DNA from: Lama guanicoe
Lineage: Eukaryota
Length of the DNA: 64,000 nucleotides
NCBI GenBank assembly: GCA_013239625.1
Contig: MU053365.1
Coordinates: forward strand, 2,018,115-2,082,114
Reading direction: 5' to 3'
The position numbers and the translations under genes were made by a program. Shown here in pieces: positions 53,989 to 62,467 of the stretch. Numbering within the stretch: the stretch's first letter is position 1; each line of letters begins with the position of its first letter. A model generated the notes under the pieces. It had not been told where the DNA came from, did not search any database, and was given only the letters and a program-made list of their open reading frames with translations.

Positions 53989-54771
53989 TTTCTTTTGGAT
54001 GGTGGAGACAAATATTTATGAAAGACAATACTCACATTTTGGAAAACATTTAAAAACTTAGATTTGTAAACATAATATTACCTGTTTCAAATGACAGTAC
54101 TTTGAAGAGAGAACATAATTTGAACTGTTACTTCAAAACCTGTTCATGTTTGACCATTTAACTTGTGTTCCCTAAGATAAAAACAAGTCTCAAGCAATGT
54201 CAACAAATAAACTTAATGAAAAGAAAATGTGTACTACTTGAAGACTCATAATGTTTTGTACAAATTTCTAAACGTCTATGTTTTAAGGCAGAATTTGAAT
54301 AAATGCTAAAAAAGAGGCTATGTTTACTCATTACATGCTTTTATTTTTTAAATGTGCACAATTTTGATTCAAAGATGCTGGATCCCCAATATTTTTTAAG
54401 AAGAGGATGAAAACAAATTTTGGAGGTAAAAAGGAACAGATGGAATAGCTTCAAAAGTACAGAAAAGCAGGGTAAAATAAAAGAAAAAGGAAATAATGAT
54501 AAATAAAAATAAACTTAAAAACAAAAACAAACATAAATCAACATAGAATAAAAAGAAAAAACATAAATCAACATAAAAGAGAAATAAGTAAAAATAAACA
54601 TAAAAACAAAAAGTTAAAATAAACATAAAAATAAAAAGAAAGAAAAATTAAAATTAAATAGTAACCCTGCATGTTTCAACAATGAAGTTTCATCCTTTTA
54701 GAATCTTAAAGCAAGTAATTTGGAATTTTTGATAAATAAGCTTCTATTTATCAAATACAGGATCCCTGGTA
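53989..54771 (-). other. Probable ELL2-derived 3' UTR of the retrocopy, with candidate polyadenylation signals
   Basis: Sequence after the stop (aagcttatttatcaaaaattccaaat..agattctaaaagg; tattggggatcc) resembles the ELL2 3' UTR as I recall it. Minus-strand AATAAA at 54340-54345; CATAAA at 54015-54020 followed ~18 nt later by an A-rich remnant at 53989-53996. Confidence 0.5.
54475..54660. repeat. A-rich low-complexity expansion inside the retrocopy 3' UTR (U-rich in the transcript)
   Basis: Degenerate aaaata/aaaaca units with a duplicated aaacataaatcaacata block. Confidence 0.85.
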
Positions 54772-56664
54772 CTAGCACTGCTCTAGTGCTAACTCTATTT
54801 GCTGCTCGTCATAATTATTTATCAACTTTTTAATGTGAGACAGCTTTTTGTAAAGATAATGGCATCTTTTTTTCTCTGCACAGTAAGTGGGATTAACCTG
54901 TTTCATCTTCTGATATTCCAGTGAGATTTTTTTATTAATAGCCTGATATTCCTTTGAGTCTGGAGAAAGGTACTTCCTTTTTGAATTTAGGGAAATATAT
55001 GTCTTAGATAAAGTCATTATCTTGGTATACAGGGCCTTGTATTCATCATATTCTACTCGAAATATCTGCTCATAGCGCTGACGTTGCTCAGAGGAGACTA
55101 TGGTGACGTAGTCAGTCAGGTAATCCGGAAAGTCAGACGTTGAGCAGGTGTTGTCAGAGGCAGTGCCAACGTTTTGAACTTCTTCACTTGAATTCAGGTT
55201 TTCACCTTCACCTTGTCCTTCGCGATCTGTCTTCGGTTTCTGTGTAATCTTAATAGTGTACTCCTGGTTCTTTACTTTATGTTCCGTAATTTTACACCTG
55301 AACTGCCCATCAGACAAAAGATCTTTCGAACACTTCATTTGAATTGAAATAGAGGCTATCTTTTCAAAAGTGTATTCACCCTCTTGGCCCTCAGGGGTCG
55401 TACTGTTTTGACTAAAACTGTCAACATCTGAATCTTGAGCCTCGGGTCCTTCTGTAGAGCTGCAGAAGCTGCAGCTGGAACTTACAGGCTGAGGAGGACT
55501 CCAAGTGGGAAGGTAGGCTGTGGGCGATGGTTGCATGATGTGATCGGGGGCAGCTTCCAAGGGTGGTGAGTGACCCGCAGCAGAGCTGTTACTGGTGTCA
55601 CTCAAATGACCGCTTGACGTTGTCTGTACTGTAGTTGTCACGTGAGATATTCTAACTTTTCTTTTCTTTGAACAATCAATAACAGCTGAATCGAGAAGCT
55701 GTTCCTCAGAATGAGACAACGTTTCATCTCTACTGGAAGCTAGAGAAGCTTCTGGGGGGTTGGTGCCAGTAGCATTCTGAAATGGACATAGTTTTCTGGA
55801 AAGCACCAAGTCCAATGTCTGCCTATCTAGTTCATTGTATCCAGGCCAGTCTCTTTGGAGCTCTTTAAAAGCATAATCCTTTAAAGTATATGAAAGAGTA
55901 CGAGGATTCAGACTGGCTACCTGCTGCAGAATTTTTCCAAGGGAGTTCTTGTCACTTTTGGGGATGCCATCTTTCTGAAGTCGAACAAAGAGTTCAGGTT
56001 TCTTGTAGTCCCTCAGCGCCAATAAGTGAATTACCCTGTCCCTTAATGGCCGCATGTGGACCCTGTTGGCCACGCGTGATTTTCTAACTGTATATGCAGG
56101 GTTAATGGGAGCTGTTCTTTTTCTCTCAGGTACTGGATCTGGATTGGCTTGAGGCGCTTTCCGAACTGGCCTTCTTTTCTGTGTATCTGGTCTTCTAAAT
56201 CTCCTCCCTCTGTTGCAGGGTTCCTCCTCTCCCTGGGTCTTTCTTGTTTGCGACGTCTGGTAAGAGTCGGTTGTTTTACATTCCGTCATTTCATCTTGCA
56301 CCAAGTGCCAGCCACTGGGCTGTGAGGGACTACAGCTTGAGACTGTTGGTTGGGTATGATGTTGATAATTGTCTTCATGCACATTTGACAACTGATAGTC
56401 AAAGTTGTATATATCAGTGGGTGAATTGTCTGGGGGGATTATGAGAAGCCCTTGGTGTCCTTGGAATTGAAAAGCAGCTTGAGGGGCTACTGTGTTCTCA
56501 TGGTTCCCAGAAGAGTCAATTGGCTGAATGGCTGGGCTGGTAAGCTGCCTGGGCAGCACAGAGACATCGCCCTGCCTTGGCTCTATGCTGGCTGTCTCCT
56601 CCATGACCGCGTCTCCATCCTGGTGTACCACTGCCCTCACTGCTCTGCCTCCATAAACTGACAT
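54772..56664 (-). CDS. ELL2-like RNA polymerase II elongation factor; intronless retrocopy/retrogene with intact ORF
   Basis: Single stop-free frame. The track start at 56706 is GTG; the first ATG is 56664 and the second, 56604, lies in a strong gtcATGG context. Collinear ELL2-like motifs: FQFQGHQGLLIIP, RKAPQA..PERKR..PINPA, RPLRDRVIHLLALRDYKKPEL..RLQKDG, YTLKDYAFKELQRDWPGY, VDSFSQN, PDYL..Y..I.S.EQRQ.Y...F..EYDEY.AL, RCHYLYKKLSHIKKLI. Parental ELL2 is multi-exon and near-invariant in mammals, so this is a derived copy and no symbol is given. Confidence 0.9.
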   Translation of the reverse strand: MSVYGGRAVRAVVHQDGDAVMEETASIEPRQGDVSVLPRQLTSPAIQPIDSSGNHENTVAPQAAFQFQGHQGLLIIPPDNSPTDIYNFDYQLSNVHEDNYQHHTQPTVSSCSPSQPSGWHLVQDEMTECKTTDSYQTSQTRKTQGEEEPCNRGRRFRRPDTQKRRPVRKAPQANPDPVPERKRTAPINPAYTVRKSRVANRVHMRPLRDRVIHLLALRDYKKPELFVRLQKDGIPKSDKNSLGKILQQVASLNPRTLSYTLKDYAFKELQRDWPGYNELDRQTLDLVLSRKLCPFQNATGTNPPEASLASSRDETLSHSEEQLLDSAVIDCSKKRKVRISHVTTTVQTTSSGHLSDTSNSSAAGHSPPLEAAPDHIMQPSPTAYLPTWSPPQPVSSSCSFCSSTEGPEAQDSDVDSFSQNSTTPEGQEGEYTFEKIASISIQMKCSKDLLSDGQFRCKITEHKVKNQEYTIKITQKPKTDREGQGEGENLNSSEEVQNVGTASDNTCSTSDFPDYLTDYVTIVSSEQRQRYEQIFRVEYDEYKALYTKIMTLSKTYISLNSKRKYLSPDSKEYQAINKKISLEYQKMKQVNPTYCAEKKRCHYLYKKLSHIKKLINNYDEQQIELALEQC

Positions 56665-56674
56665 ATAGTCATGT

Positions 56675-56700
56675 CTGCAAAGGTCAAAGTTTAAATAGTA
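56675..56700 (-). promoter_or_regulatory. Candidate 3' splice acceptor immediately upstream of the retrogene ATG
   Basis: Minus strand reads tactatttaaactttgacctttgcAG|acatgactatATG; the exon would begin at 56674, 10 nt before the first in-frame ATG. Confidence 0.5.
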
Positions 56701-58037
56701 AAACACTTTCCTTGGTGAAAATTGAATCTCTTATTGCTATTGTTTATAAAACTATAATTATGAAAGTTTTTTCCCCCAGTGTAACAAAGGCAAGACGTGT
56801 CTCTGGTTGAGATAGAACTTGGGGAGGTAGAGTTGGTTGTAAAGATAATCACTTCCCAATGTTCTTCCTTTCACAGTTTTACTTTCTCTTCAGGAGGAAG
56901 TTAACCCTAAGTCAAGAGTGCTAAATCTTTCTCTGAGCCCAGTGCATGACCTCCTCCCACTAAATCCAACATCAAGTAGAGGTACTTATGGGGAGATTAA
57001 CAGGTGCCTCGAGCTTATGGAAACTAGAGGGGAAGGAGTCCACAGAGCATAATTAGCATTAACTTTGCCCTATATTTACTCTGGCTTGCAAGTGGGCTGT
57101 CAAGTCCTTCTTGGCATTGGAGCCTGGCCTATCATTAAGGGATCTCATTTAATAGCTGAACACATTATTGTGTTTTAATAGTGGGTAAAAGCCAACATTT
57201 TAGAGGTGCTCATTTCTCTTTCCAACTTTCTAACCAGCACCAATGAGTGGCAGGCATTTTCATCTCCTGAGCTTACCACTGATGTCCACTATTGTGCTTC
57301 ACTGCACCCCCCCCCCCCCCTTAGGAGGGTCCTCAGCAAATCACAGGATTAGCCAGGTAAAATTGCCCATACTGAAAGAAATCTTGTACCTAGGCATGCT
57401 AGACATGTACATTCAATCATAGAATAAACACAGATTATCAGAAACTCCAAGCAGTTCCAACTAGTTTCACCCCAAAAGATAAAAGGCTCAATTCTCTCTC
57501 CTTACCCTCTTCACACTCCCAGTCCATCTTATTCTCAGATTTCCCAGCCTTTACTCATGGCAGCACTTTCTACCTCATCACACAACTAGAAAACCTCAGC
57601 ATCATCTTCCACTAGTCCTTCAAACATACTTGTCATTAATTTTCCTCCAAAACAACTAGTCAGCCACCACATATGTCATTCATCCACTAGACAGTTACCG
57701 AATACTGATCACGTGCCAGAAAGTATTCTAGGTGCTTGGGAATACTGCAACGAACAAAATAGAAACAAACAAAAATCCTCAGTCTCATAATGCCAACACT
57801 CTTGTCAAGTTTTTCTACCAAAAATTTCAACCCCCTCACCATTCCTCTCCCATACTACAGTCTTTGTCCTAATTTAGGCCCAAAGTATCTTAGCCAATGT
57901 TACATGCTCTCTTCCTAGCTTGATTTCTTGCCTCCAGTCTTTTCTTCTTCTATATCATTTTCTAAACTGACAGCAATGACTCCGATCAACTTTACTTTAA
58001 AACAAGTGATAGTTCCCATTACTTCAAGAATAAAATT

Positions 58038-58441
58038 AATGAAAATGTGCTCAACACTACTAATCATCAGGGACATGCAAATCAAAACCACAATAAGCTA
58101 TCGCTTCACACCTGTTAGAATGCCTAGCCTCTGAAAGACAAGAGATAACAAATGTTGGTGAGGAAGTGTAGAGAAAGGAACACTCAGGCACTGTTGGTGG
58201 GAATGTAAATTGGTGCAGCCTCAGTGGAAAACAGTATGGAGGTTCCTTAATCAATTAAAAATAGAACTACCATATGATACAGAAATCCCACTTCTGGGCA
58301 TTTACCCAAAGGAAATGAAAATGGGATCTCAGAGAGATATCTCTACTCTCATGTTCATTGCAGCATCATTCACAATAGTGAAGACTTGCAAACAACCTAA
58401 GTGTCCATCAATGAATGAATGGATAAAGAAGATGTGGGGTG

Positions 58442-58493
<52 letters not shown>

Positions 58494-59012
58494 ATATACA
58501 ATATTGTCCAGCCATGAGAAAGGACATTCTGCTATTTGTGACAAGATGGATGGACCTAGAAGACATTATGCTTATTGACATAAGTCAGAGAAAGACAAAT
58601 ACTGTATGGTATCACTTATATGTCAAATCTGAAAAAGCCAAATTCATAGAAACAGAGACTAGAATGGTGGTTACCAGGGGCTGGTGGGTAGGGGTAAAAA
58701 GGAAATACTGGTCAAAGGATACAAACTTCCAGTTGTAAGATGAGTAAGTTCTCAGGATCTAATGTAAAGCATAGTGGTTATTGTTAATAATACTGTATTA
58801 TGTGATTGAAAATTGCTAAGAGAGTAGATCTTAAGTGTTCTCACCACAAAAAAAGAAATGGTAACTAGGTGACATGATGCAGGTGTTAGTCAATGTTTTA
58901 TGGTCCTAATTTTTTTAATATAAAAGTGTATCAAACCAATATGTTGTATATCATAAAGTTAGACAATGTTATATGTCAATTATATCTTAGTAAAGTTGAG
59001 AAAAAAGAGAAA
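58038..59012 (+). mobile_element. L1MA-type 3' fragment inserted into an L2
   Basis: Track ORFs give LIIRDMQIKTTISYRFTPVRM and VQPQWKTVWRFLNQLKIELPYDTEIPLLGIYPKEMK; gctaagagagtagatcttaagtgttctcaccaca; contains (TG)n(TA)n at 58448-58490. Confidence 0.92.
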
Positions 59013-59019
59013 AAAGTAA

Positions 59020-59510
59020 TACCCTTTGGTGTGGCATACAAGACCCTTCTAACTCTGTTCCCAATTCTGTTCTAATTCTGTTCTCCTAAAGCGTGTGCTA
59101 TGTGTCTAATTGCTGCATTGATCTATTTACTATTCTCTGAATATTCTCCCCAACTTTTTCCTATCTGCCTTTCACTTGAAATTTCTTCTGCCCTCTAATG
59201 CTCTTCCCCCAGATCTTTGCTTGCATTTCTCCTTTATTTACCGTCTTTGCACAACCACTCTGTCTGAAGTCGTGACCCATACACACACACACTCCAGTGA
59301 TCTTTCTACTATCTTGTTCTGCTTTTCTTTATAGAACACTTACCTATTCAAAATTATATTACATATATTTGTTTAATATGGGTCACCTTCACCAGAATAT
59401 GAGGTTAACGAGGGCTTGGGTTTTGTCAGTTTTTGGCATTGCTGTATTCCGAGTGCCTGGCACACATAGTAAGCACTCAATACGTATTTGGTGAGCAAAT
59501 GAATGCATCG
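59020..59510 (+). mobile_element. L2 3' end
   Basis: gtgcctggcacacatagtaagcactcaatacgtatttggtgagcaaatgaatg terminus. Confidence 0.8.
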
Positions 59511-59639
59511 ACTCTCTCTGCTTTTAAATCTCACTCATATTGGGTTCAGCTAGTTAAATTTCTTCTCAACCTTAGAAGCTCAGCTCAAATGCCACACCAT
59601 ATGTAAGATCTTCCTCCATTCAAAAGTAATACTTCCCTT

Positions 59640-59779
59640 GGGGGGAGGGTATTGCTCAAGTGGTAGAGTGTGCGCTTAGCATGCACGGGGTCCTGGGTTC
59701 AATCCCCGGTACCTCCTCTAAAAGAATAAATAAATAAACCTAATTACCTCTCCCCCCAAAAAATATTTTTATAAAACCC
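59640..59779 (+). mobile_element. tRNA-derived SINE, camelid vic-1-like
   Basis: A and B boxes, aataaataaataaacctaattacctc tail; perfect 13-bp TSD taatacttccctt at 59627-59639 and 59780-59792. Confidence 0.92.
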
Positions 59780-60399
59780 TAATACTTCCCTTCATTATAA
59801 TCTCAGAGCACTTTGTATTACCCCCATGAGAAACATCACCCACTGCATCATATATTATTTATGTGTCTGCCTCCTCCATTAGATTCTGACTCCATATCTG
59901 TGGCAACTACATGCTACTCAAATTTGCAAGACCCTTCTTTTTTGTCCCCGGGATCTCACTCTAGAAGTAGCAGGTACATAGCAGAAGGCGTTCTTTAAAT
60001 ATTTATTTAAAGAATGAATAATAGTACCTTTGCTTTTCTCCTGGCAAAGATATATTACTGTCGCTTCAAGGAGTTATATTGTCTGTTAATGACAGGGAGA
60101 TGTTCTGTTCCTCTTTAAGATTTTTTTTCACGTTCCTGTTAGCTGCACAGTACATTTGTATTTTAAAAAGTGAAATCACTGTTTCAGGGACAATGTAAAA
60201 TACTTCCTCAAAAAACCAATGCACTGCTTGCTGAAGTACACTCAGCAATATAATGTTCTAAGGTATGCACAAATGCTTTGTTTCATTCTTCCTGGAGACC
60301 TCTAGTAGACACAGAAAGAAATAATATATCCTTTAGTATCTTTAACTCTGCAACCTTTGGGAGAATAAATAAAATATTTCTCGGCTAGGTCTATTCCCA

Positions 60400-61000
60400 T
60401 TGGAAATAACAACAATAAAATATCCCTTAGGAAGAGCCTGGGAAGGGGGGCATACTGCGACAAATACAAAATGGGATTGACAGATGTAAAAGAAGACTTG
60501 AAAACATGAAGAAAGAGTTCATGATTTCTGAAAAGAAAATTGAATATTGTCACGATGCCAAATATTTCCAAATTACTACATGCAGTTAGTCCAATCACAA
60601 TAAAAACTTGAGCAGGACTGTTTTCTTTAAGCCTGTCAAAACTATTATAAAATTCAGCTCTAAGAAGAGCTAAAAGAATTTCACAAAGGAGACTAACAGC
60701 AGGGAGTTACCCTCACCTGATATTGTAACACAAAGCTACTGTAATTAACAGAGTGAGGAACTAGCCTGAGAACAGTGTGAAAATGAACAGATAGCTGAGC
60801 TGCAGAGCCCAGAACGTAACAGATGATTTAAAAAAAAAAAGCATCAGTAATCAATGTAGAAAGGGTAGATCATTGCATGAACACTGTTTAGACAAGTTGT
60901 CAACATTTTAGCAGAAATATCAAATTGGAATCTTCCTACATAACATTATAGAATGAATTCCAGATGTATCAGAGTTTAAAAAAAAGCAACCATAAGATAA
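60400..61000 (+). mobile_element. Ancient L1M ORF2 fragment
   Basis: aaagaagacttgaaaacatgaagaaagagttcatgatttctgaaaagaaaattgaatattgtcacgatgccaa; caaagctactgtaattaacagagtgagg. Confidence 0.65.
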
Positions 61001-62467
61001 CAAATAACAGCAATAATCACAGAGAAAACAAACACGAACATAATTTATTGCATACACTGTCATTATCCTATTAAAGAGCACTCAAACTGTATGTCATCAA
61101 GCCCCCAAACTGGTATCAAAGTAAGGAAAGCTTGGGGAACAATACTAGATGTCTCTGTCTGGAAGCACACAGGAGAGTATCACAACTGCGGCCTGACCAG
61201 CAATGCTGAAGAGTCATTTGTCTGATGGGCTTTAAGAAAAAACTAACTGATCAAAGTATTGAATATTATCCTAACTTTCTTATTAAGTAGGTAGCAATAA
61301 TAAATTCTATTCTAACAAAATTGAATTCCCCTTCTAAATTGTCTAGCTTACCATGTTATTACCATGAAATAGATGTTTAGTTCACAAGGCACTATGTGAT
61401 TGGATGAGAATAACCAATAAAATGACTGCACACTGATGTATTTTGAAAGGTCACTGGTCAAGTGCTGTCCCATTTTGGCAAGCCGTTCATAATTCTACCT
61501 GGCTCTCCAGCAAATGCTGAAGCAGTTAAAATGACAAAACGCTATTCATCCATCTTATCATACTTTGATAATGCTTCACAACCTGCCTCTGACTACTGTG
61601 GTCACTCCACTCAAAATAATTAGGCCACCAAAGTCCAAACTCTGGACAATCCTCTGTGAGAGAGCAGGAGGCACAGGGAGCTGGGCCTGCTCATTTACAC
61701 CAGGTATCCTCACTGGTTTTGTAGTAAAACAAAGTCAAAAACAGTTAGATCCAGTTATCAAACCTCTTGAAGTCTAGCTGAGTTTAGGTCTAATTCTATC
61801 ATTTCTCACCTATCCATTGTTCATTGTCATCCTCCAAATGTCAAGCTCCAAGTGGCTCTACTGTCTTCTCCACCTGTCTTAACACTCCTCTGAACTGCCT
61901 TTGTTCTGTAACCATCCACATTCCTACCCTTCTAGAACTCTGACATCACAATTAGCCATCTCCTCTAACATTCCCCACCCCCAGTCTTAAAGTGAAACTC
62001 AGCTTTCTCCAAATATGCTACTTTATCCCTCTCAAAATGAGCCCACTTCTTTTCTCTGATTCCTTGTAATTCAACATCGGCAAATGAGAACACCCTTTTT
62101 GTTGCTGTCTAGTGATAATATGAGAATCATATTACTCATTGACTCATAAAGTTACCTCCTCCTCTGAGGCACAAACCGACTGATTATAACCCTTGTACCA
62201 TCAAACTCCTAACCATGGTCTCCTCTCTGTGGTGAATCTCACACACTCTTCCCTCAGCTCTGCTGGCTTCAGCCGTACTGACCTTCATTTGATCCCTAAA
62301 ACACACCCGTCTCGTTTCTGTCTTGAAGGATTTGTATACGCCGGTGCCCTGCTGGCAATATTCTCCATTATCAGTCTGCTTCCTGTGCCTCCACACACAA
62401 CTCTCACTGCCTATGAAGCCCCGAGTCATCCTCCTAGTCCCCATTTAAATACCCTTAATAGAGCATC

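Follow-up and report, generated by a model that had tools for sequence, protein, structure and literature searches.

An intact ELL2-like retrogene in the guanaco genome, the probable camelid orthologue of an ancient placental ELL-family gene

A stretch of 64,000 nucleotides from the Lama guanicoe genome (assembly GCA_013239625.1, contig MU053365.1, positions 2,018,115 to 2,082,114 of the forward strand), hereafter called the window, contains an open reading frame (ORF) whose predicted product resembles ELL2, an RNA polymerase II elongation factor. In our judgement this ORF is quite probably the camelid orthologue of an old ELL2 retrogene of single origin, annotated as 'ELL2-like' in other genomes and as Ell2l1 in the rat, and its product would be a nuclear ELL-type factor with a specialisation of its own.

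The ORF, which the initial annotation had placed at 54772..56664 as 630 stop-free codons, was confirmed on the minus strand, where it runs from an ATG at 56664 to a TAG at 54774-54772 and encodes a protein beginning MSVYGG. Neither a disabling stop nor a frame shift was present in the 630 codons, and the stop-free frame around the ORF extends to 652 codons, the longest other stop-free frame in the window being 164 amino acids (aa) (109 frames of at least 70 aa). The product was matched by the Pfam family ELL (PF10390; E value 1.4e-65, 222 bits against a cut-off of 22.9) at residues 33-292, on profile positions 17-282 of 282, and by Occludin_ELL (PF07303; E value 1.7e-26) at residues 519-620 with the whole profile covered; by both domains it is assigned to the ELL family. 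A single HMMER alignment was shown to span human ELL2 residues 24-637 of 640 (7okx_M, E value 1.9e-152) with indels in frame only, and identity to true ELL2 proteins ranged from 43 to 49%, which upheld the collinearity, the frame-keeping indels and the agreement at about half of the residues that had been noted by eye. The helical part, residues 200-292 (55789-56067), matched the solved ELL2 helical domain 2e5n, and the Occludin/ELL (OCEL) domain matched the AFF4-binding-domain structure 5jw9_B (E value 9.5e-34). The elements of the locus, including an upstream exon considered below, are as follows.

54772..56664, minus strand: the reported ORF with its stop codon, 630 codons
54772..56674, minus strand: coding part of the main, retro-derived exon, from the sequence; fits the alpaca N-terminus MDRHDYMSV (P0197)
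56675..61809, minus strand: inferred intron of 5,135 bases (GT at 61809-61808, AG at 56676-56675), from splice motifs and the annotated alpaca protein
61810..61817, minus strand: 3' end of the inferred 5' exon, ATGGATAG, with the donor GTGAGA directly after it
55789..56568, minus strand: Pfam ELL domain, residues 33-292 (Pfam, HMMER)
55651..55668, minus strand: basic cluster KKRKVR, residues 333-338, by alignment to K333/K334 in the second half of the nuclear localisation signal of ELL2
54805..55110, minus strand: OCEL domain, residues 519-620 (Pfam; 5jw9_B; predicted local distance difference test, pLDDT, above 90)

In a FastTree phylogeny of 121 rows, 41 ELL2-like rows formed one clade (support 100, stem 0.46) that was sister to 38 eutherian ELL2 rows, and the ELL2 sequences of wombat and platypus fell outside the grouping of eutherian ELL2 and ELL2-like. 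An IQ-TREE analysis under LG+C20 with 49 rows gave the clade a Shimodaira–Hasegawa-like approximate likelihood ratio (SH-aLRT) support of 100, the sister relation 95, and the position of wombat outside 90. Branching inside the clade tracks the species tree, with Afrotheria plus Xenarthra, Euarchontoglires (lagomorphs and rodents) and Laurasiatheria, and the window protein is placed as sister to Camelus (support 100), within Cetartiodactyla (96-99) and within the clade (100). The pattern shown by the tree is that of one insertion followed by vertical descent. Since members occur in all four superorders, an origin before the placental radiation is indicated, and an origin after the marsupial split is favoured by the branching order. 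In the scenario that we propose, a spliced ELL2 mRNA would have been reverse-copied into the genome before the placental radiation, and the retrocopy, inherited vertically since, would later have been extended upstream by a short coding exon and an intron.

The breadth of this distribution became apparent from protein searches. They gave a Camelus protein with 96% identity to the window protein (604 of 630 residues), and among the matches listed about 40 'ELL2-like' clusters were found, most of which, at up to 61% identity, resemble the query more than true ELL2 does (46%). These came from rhinoceros, hippopotamus, seals, deer, goat, sheep, bats, bears, cats, dog, hyena and moles, and further from colugo, rabbit, hare, pikas, squirrels, mice, hamsters, dugong, elephant and sloth. 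Searching with a profile of 41 clade sequences brought in a further 11 clusters of muroid rodents, including rat and Mus pahari, and cattle, buffalo, pig, warthog, armadillo, mustelids, voles, deer mice and alpaca came from a look-up of clusters, bringing the intact ELL2-like orthologues to about 57 genera. No primate or Mus musculus member was seen among the best 120 of about 620 matches that made up each protein match list. The expectation that the gene might already be auto-annotated as 'ELL2-like' was thus realised in the machine-annotated records of many genomes. On the evidence of these comparisons, the retrogene is ancient and placental-wide, and no lineage-specific copy of camelids. 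A metagenome scan returned 40 loci, all of which belong, as exons or as transcripts, to ELL-family genes from other animals and none to the ELL2-like clade. Two of the metagenome contigs (L022 and L023, 2.7-4.5 kb) carry contiguous ELL-family matches of about 420 residues at 42-47% identity that lie outside the clade, and look as though they come from another animal, either as transcripts or as ELL genes poor in introns.

The parental ELL2 gene of the same genome has at least nine coding exons and occupies about 64 kb (contig C55230:35596398-35660993). Six of its exons were aligned to the coding sequence (CDS) in the window at 69-84% nucleotide identity, and the parental exon junctions were contiguous in that CDS (746/742, 869/863 and 938/959), neighbouring exons abutting or overlapping by a few bases, which shows the parental introns to be absent. 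No similarity to parental ELL2 pieces, including pieces of its untranslated region (UTR), was detected in the 2 kb on each side of the CDS, and no run of A follows the stop codon, the 3' flank being T-rich and of low complexity; this lack of a poly(A) tail and of UTR similarity is expected of an insertion so old. The T-rich stretch (54400-54660, minus strand) consists of repeated ttttatttttatgtttatttt-like units and starts about 110 bases past the stop, and an AATAAA motif stands at 54345-54340, 427 bases past the stop.

The same genome holds a second ELL2 retrocopy (contig C5895:4825520-4826471; loci L007, L013 and L020), in which 8 stops and at least 3 frame changes were counted over about 330 codons. 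Its pieces lie in three frames and cross several parental exon junctions, and its identity is 44-51% to pig ELL2 but only 30% to the window protein. This processed pseudogene of ELL2 arose as a separate insertion and is dead, and serves as a model of how a neutral ELL2 retrocopy decays in the guanaco genome. An OCEL-like exon was also seen on contig C9598 (7494271-7494447, minus strand), with 46% identity to ELL2 residues 531-589; it presumably belongs to another OCEL gene such as ELL3.

To gauge selection, the pace of change was set against the survival of the frame. Along matched-species paths, the ELL2-like clade was found to be a median of 7.8 times longer than ELL2 (range 4.9-11.3, 28 pairs), and tree length amounted to 8.34 changes per site for 30 ELL2-like rows versus 0.64 for 12 ELL2 rows. 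The ratio of nonsense to missense mutations for the window CDS is 0.058-0.070, and the approximately 311 replacements between the crown node and the window therefore predict 18-20 stops, or 36-39 with the stem included, and 12-13 on the camelid stem alone; none was observed (P 1.5e-8 to 9e-18). Because the frame survived an amount of amino-acid change expected to bring 18-39 stops, the retrogene appears to have been kept by selection. In the clade alignment of 41 sequences, constraint was also visible in the 24 columns that never vary, all of which lie in residues 184-284; mean column conservation was 0.81 at residues 200-292, 0.75 in OCEL and 0.58-0.66 in the N-terminal part and linker. The conserved parts are thus the basic stretch with the helical domain (residues ~161-292) and the C-terminal OCEL domain, and the N-terminal third and the long linker change fast. 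Among the 26 differences between the window and Camelus, only one fell in the 166 columns conserved among 39 non-camelid members (Fisher p 0.005). Most of these 26 differences fall on the South American branch. Judged by stop counts and column conservation, selection has preserved the frame together with roughly a quarter of the residues. Both parts of the argument first made from the letters, namely that a neutral retrocopy this diverged should carry stops and frameshifts and that survival of the frame suggests a selected retrogene, were supported, the former by the decay of the C5895 pseudogene at similar divergence and the latter by the missing stops and the single replacement in conserved columns.

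As to gene structure, an alpaca record (P0197) of 636 aa starts MDRHDY before MSV and is equal to the window protein at 625 of 630 positions, the five amino-acid differences lying at positions 33, 102, 113, 318 and 477. In the window, the bases preceding the ORF read ...ctttgacctttgcag and then, across a good splice acceptor, ACATGACTATATG, and a contiguous MD cannot be encoded there. The acceptor ttgcag stands at 56680-56675, and (R)HDY is encoded in frame by the 10 bases that precede M1. On the same strand, 5.1 kb upstream at 61817-61804, ATGGATAG followed directly by GTGAGA encodes M and D and opens the codon for R with two bases, and joining 61810 to 56674 yields M-D-R-H-D-Y-M-S-V and a protein of 636 aa, as in the alpaca record. 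By our own arithmetic, a chance of about 0.014 is obtained for ATGGAYAG+GT occurring on the minus strand in the 7.3 kb of upstream sequence available. The most likely start of the CDS is thus 6 codons before M1, in an upstream exon of its own (61817-61810). An N-terminus of the form MDR(Y/F)... is common to many clade members of other orders, and for this reason the added 5' exon is probably old. The initial description of an intronless ELL2 retrogene was therefore right for the main exon, from which the parental introns are gone with their junctions fused, and fell short for the whole gene, which appears to have a separate 5' exon.

Two further observations concern this region. The 22 in-frame codons before M1 (56665-56730, minus strand; …KVFYYLNFDLCRHDY) resemble the N-terminal read-through of mustelid gene models, …KVFY(H/R)LNFDLHRYDY, and the acceptor region seems to be conserved between camelids and carnivores. 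Inside the inferred intron, a run of about 15 G is found at 57305-57320 on the minus strand.

Traces of expression were sought among public reads. In four RNA-labelled runs from two studies (X15-X18), a fraction of 0.37 of the 194 sampled words was found in each, a result of word matching only, to be read with the caution that RNA libraries can carry DNA; two of the four are tagged reproductive system. The 14 DNA-type runs among the 24 listed contained 88-100% of the words. A 37% share of words fits a full-length transcript of a species diverged by about 3%, and fits a partial one equally well. In addition, a protein from assembled public reads in Logan (P0200, 636 aa) starts MDRYDY, and is of Camelus type at 25 of the 26 sites that separate the window from the dromedary and of ferus/bactrianus type at the remaining site, 504. 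Because its start needs a splice and cannot be encoded by contiguous DNA of the window, P0200 is most likely derived from mRNA. Expression of the gene is accordingly regarded as likely, and expression in reproductive tissue is hinted at.

The function of the product was approached by structure prediction and by comparison with residues of known role. AlphaFold, run with the clade alignment, gave confident pLDDT values of 70-85 for residues 200-290 and above 90 for OCEL, all else being predicted as disordered. In PMC10716050, the N-terminal part of ELL2 is described as pairing with EAF1 on the Pol II lobe, with contacts also to external 2 and the protrusion. Complex modelling of the first 150 residues together with residues 90-205 of Camelus EAF1 gave scores of 0.40, 0.01 and 0.01, which, lacking controls, speak neither for nor against such pairing.

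At the other end of the protein, 20 residues of ELL2 are named as AFF4 contacts in PMC5290273, of which Tyr596/Ile599 were taken as Y597/I600 according to alignment position. With respect to the contacts named there, the window protein is identical at 8 and conservatively changed at 7. Across the clade, several groove positions have changed relative to ELL2 and are near fixation, namely H618Y (38/38), I600M (35), V589I (35), L594S (32), H559Y (28) and H590N (27), which points to an AFF-binding groove that was altered and then held. The nuclear localisation signal of ELL2, mapped to K319/R320 and K333/K334 in PMC11586470, is represented in the window protein by K333/K334, retained within KKRKVR. 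We propose that ELL2-like would act in the nucleus as an ELL-type RNA polymerase II elongation factor, working through its conserved central domain and an OCEL domain with clade-fixed substitutions in the AFF groove, and that it may have a partner or tissue specialisation unlike that of ELL2, most likely in reproductive tissue.

Several observations weigh against this reading. The N-terminal part, which in ELL2 pairs with EAF1, is the least conserved domain (mean column conservation 0.60-0.67), and the N-terminal 200 residues are predicted to be disordered (pLDDT below 30). Five of the 20 AFF4 contacts named in PMC5290273 are changed non-conservatively, and K319/R320 of the nuclear localisation signal, as mapped in PMC11586470, are E/Q in the window protein. 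The 7.8-fold faster evolution may mean that much of the protein is close to neutral, and the stop test is powerless within camelids (1.6 expected, P 0.2), where the end branch of the window is four times that of Camelus (0.035 vs 0.008). Some members are short or flagged, such as those of Equus quagga (540 aa, without OCEL), colugo (535 aa), Microtus (486-487 aa) and Lutra ('LOW QUALITY PROTEIN'), and decay in some lineages is possible. As for age, an approximately unbiased (AU) test failed to reject a position of the clade outside therian ELL2 (p 0.34, log-likelihood difference 6.2), so the date after the marsupial split is favoured, not established.

Among the alternatives, the one that survives best is a functional protein that no longer stimulates elongation, and that would act as a decoy for AFF scaffolds against ELL and ELL2 or have some other nuclear role. 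The poor conservation of the EAF-pairing region, the least conserved folded part, next to the kept helical and OCEL domains would suit such a protein, as would the clade-specific fixed changes in the AFF-binding groove. The N-terminal region is nevertheless still collinear with ELL2 and inside the Pfam ELL match from residue 33, and its start, MAA-GG-R, is recognisably conserved across the clade. We consider a decoy unlikely, and prefer an elongation factor.

Less probable still is an old functional gene that has recently lost its constraint in camelids, or on the South American branch only, and is now an incipient pseudogene. The long end branch of the window and the five differences from the alpaca record in 630 residues agree with such a loss, and with 1.6 stops expected in the camelid crown the open frame proves little. 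Against it, the conserved columns were spared by 25 of the 26 replacements that followed the Camelus split (p 0.005), neither the start codon nor the splice sites of the two-exon model are damaged, and part of the sequence is present in the RNA-labelled runs. We hold a recent loss of constraint to be quite improbable, and continued function in camelids to be the better account.

A neutral processed pseudogene, whether young or slowly decaying, with a frame left open by chance can be given hardly any credence: the ORF does stand alone in a gene-poor stretch, with no other Pfam-recognisable gene in 104 kb and no poly(A) tail or parental UTR similarity remaining, but its 46-48% identity to ELL2 makes it an old copy, no stop is found where 18-39 are expected, the orthologues are intact in about 57 genera and follow the species tree, 24 columns are invariant despite a tree length of 8.3 changes per site, and 8 stops together with frame shifts are found in a real ELL2 pseudogene of the guanaco genome. 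A duplication of ELL2 at the DNA level, with all introns lost afterwards, is just as hard to credit, since the one intron that the locus does hold, in its 5' part, lies upstream of the ELL2 start codon and at no parental intron position, all five checkable parental junctions are precisely fused, and the simultaneous clean loss of many introns, here at least eight, is a hallmark of reverse transcription.

The chromosomal setting could be followed most directly in cattle, in which the protein XP_059739802 sits on a sequence of 139,009,144 bp. Chromosome X of cattle has the same size, 139,009,144 bp, in a table of PMC11153504, which places the cattle copy on the X chromosome. The sequences that carry other members measure 100-194 Mb, compatible with X chromosomes, and the contig of the window measures 2.41 Mb. 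As the X chromosome is generally conserved among placentals, the camelid copy is inferred to be X-linked too.

Around the gene, no neighbouring genes were found in 104 kb: a Pfam search of 103 frames of at least 70 aa in the window gave only a sub-threshold TMEM128-like match, and no match came from the 36 frames searched in the 40 kb beyond the window or from 116 of the 117 frames of 48-69 aa at 40-64 kb. Matches to transposon families of Pfam were likewise absent from the 103 longer frames of the whole window and from 116 of the 117 shorter frames at 40-64 kb, and the flanking L1 ORFs reported earlier were thus left unconfirmed, with no transposon match in 103 + 116 frames. MAGE genes, which are mostly X-linked, gave 35 matches in the genome and none on the contig of the window. 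The TMEM128-like match belongs to a stop-free frame of 138 aa (58162-58575, plus strand), on the opposite strand inside the inferred intron; its E value is 9e-4, with 20.1 bits against a cut-off of 23.9, and it may be the remnant of an old TMEM128 retrocopy.

A full-text literature search for ELL2-like, Ell2l1 or an ELL2 retrogene returned no description in the article texts covered, in line with the earlier impression that the gene is uncharacterised. The existence of the gene is already on record as machine annotation, and no study of it appears to exist. To our knowledge, ELL, ELL2 and ELL3 have been treated, from human and mouse, as the full set of ELL-type factors. The locus indicates that a further ELL2-derived gene is kept in cattle, pig, sheep, camel, dog, cat, rabbit, rat, elephant, sloth and many others. 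Should this gene be active, the super elongation complex as modelled from human and mouse would lack a component that most mammals possess, farm animals and the laboratory rat among them. In the rat, ELL2-like could be put to a direct test.

A wider conjecture, which we put forward tentatively and regard as doubtful, is that most placentals carry a fourth, X-linked ELL-family factor that was lost in primates and the house mouse, and whose AFF groove was re-tuned and then fixed with the rest of the protein evolving near-neutrally or adaptively, a pattern to be expected of a factor of reproductive tissue under recurrent conflict. One example of such a conflict, if the conjecture is true, would be the transcription of X-linked or transposon-derived genes in germ cells. 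If active, the ELL2-like gene would also present a clean case of a core transcription factor copy that was retuned after moving to a new chromosome; if it proves to be fast-evolving and of marginal function, it would be one more ordinary retrogene.

Compared with known genes, the window gene shares with ELL2 the collinearity over residues 24-637, both Pfam domains, and the helical and OCEL domains. It differs from ELL2 in its identity of 46-48%, in having one large coding exon versus at least nine, in its roughly 7.8-fold faster evolution, in lacking half of the nuclear localisation signal, in the clade-specific changes of the AFF4 groove, and in the X-chromosomal position of the cattle copy. 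From the ELL2-like records, such as rat Ell2l1 (UniRef F1LZB9), cattle G3X796 and alpaca XP_072812663, which are machine annotations of the same clade, there is no difference in kind. The human processed pseudogenes ELL2P1 (chromosome 1) and ELL2P2 (chromosome 4) are, like the C5895 copy, also retrocopies of ELL2 mRNA; as candidate relics of the ELL2-like gene, the two human copies are, by their chromosomes, no obvious counterparts. Cstf2t (tauCstF-64) is a retrogene paralogue with testis-biased use, and resembles the window gene in that an intronless copy of a housekeeping factor was retained alongside the original. The direction of movement sets the two apart, in that Cstf2t is an autosomal copy of an X-linked parent, whereas ELL2-like has its parent on a different contig and, in cattle, is itself X-linked.

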